DNA of 64,000 nt, from the NCBI GenBank assembly GCA_048940605.1, contig JBHLOJ010000002.1, positions 17,742 to 81,741 on the forward strand, in the 5' to 3' direction; not shown here. Origin of the DNA: Promethearchaeota archaeon (GTDB taxonomy: Archaea > Asgardarchaeota > Lokiarchaeia > Sigyniarchaeales > SOKP01). A report on this DNA, generated by a model with database tools, continues below.

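Follow-up and report, generated by a model that had tools for sequence, protein, structure and literature searches.

Sequons along the giant protein and its family

Across the region of the giant ORF that we examined (window 35800-64000, aa 1,501-10,900), N-x-S/T sequons are 1.5-fold enriched in the stalk and nearly absent from aa ~10,070 on, a depletion seen also at the family loci L001-L021. Family-wide, the distal module and the tail, the extreme end that is swapped between relatives together with a partner gene, hold 2 sequons against 118 expected, and the reversed motif occurs there at its expected frequency.

Composition also varies along this ORF, with a G+C content of 0.38-0.44 at window 33900-36000 versus ~0.31 elsewhere. 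This stretch corresponds to about aa 870-1,570, and within it lies the ORF's only above-cutoff Pfam match, Laminin_G_3 (aa 1390-1550). The raised G+C may mark an acquired segment or a different composition constraint. Besides the flagged membrane-like segments, the stalk has two other hydrophobic outliers (see table), and one of them, ELLSLLALSEIVALRVVGI, is kept in loci L001 and L003; because it contains charged residues, its sequence looks like an amphipathic helix.

Atypical loci, tails and cassette partners

Locus L002 (JAAKFN010000045.1) lies on a contig labelled Candidatus Anoxychlamydiales. Its giant gene is of the Asgard type, and between L002 and L015 both the tail and the downstream gene show 100% identity; the contig is likely mis-binned. 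At L005, homology of the protein P0023 has a sharp onset, at the position that matches window aa ~10,548. Its gene stands among metabolic genes, with a beta-propeller gene on one side and a small Cys-rich one on the other, and looks like an orphan cassette or a rearrangement. Two divergent paralogues, at L006 and L019, each carry a single in-frame stop, one just ahead of the site of the first membrane-like segment, which is deleted there, while the other replaces a Gln/Glu codon precisely where the second segment begins. These genes could be pseudogenes, and the stops could also reflect sequencing errors or be read through.

Among other tails, that of P0012 matches a ThiS/MoaD-like beta-grasp (E 9e-6) and that of P0019 matches LAGLIDADG_3 (E 9e-6), which may point to an intein or a domain of homing-endonuclease type. 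No Pfam match backs the NCBI name 'signal peptidase I' for P0024. In two independent class-B cassettes, an LRR gene is followed by a gene for an AF_0136_C-domain protein, which may be a third cassette member.

Features of the window and of family loci
Feature	Location	Strand	Remark
Schlafen AlbA_2-domain protein	11291-12841	-	
Phage-integrase SAM-like	14503-15120	+	weak match
S8 subtilase + bacterial Ig domain	20410-22215	-	secreted-looking
Right-handed beta-helix/NosD protein, 1,518 aa	within 22902-30257	-	signal-peptide-like start
300-aa ORF	within 22902-30257	-	
579-aa ORF	within 22902-30257	-	sequons 12 vs 4.7
Stalk hydrophobic outlier	51088-51144		aa 6,597-6,615
Stalk hydrophobic outlier ELLSLLALSEIVALRVVGI	56101-56157		aa 8,268-8,286
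P0023	L005 5808-11196		end-module + tail copy, 5'-truncated
In-frame stop	L006 7539-7541		divergent paralogue
In-frame stop	L019 ~8643-8645		divergent paralogue
AF_0136_C-domain protein	L006 14164-14895		after LRR gene
AF_0136_C-domain protein	L009 3388-4116		after LRR gene

Neighbouring genes in the window

The Schlafen gene and the weak integrase match lie close together in window 11291-16290, which may represent a small islet of mobile or defence genes. No tRNA turned up anywhere in the 64,000-nt window. Immediately upstream of the giant gene and divergent from it, three ORFs, among them a NosD/beta-helix protein strongly enriched in sequons (47 vs 25), may share one surface-structure locus with it. 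The S8 subtilase has 0 sequons against 4.2 expected and, as another exported protein, appears to avoid glycosylation.
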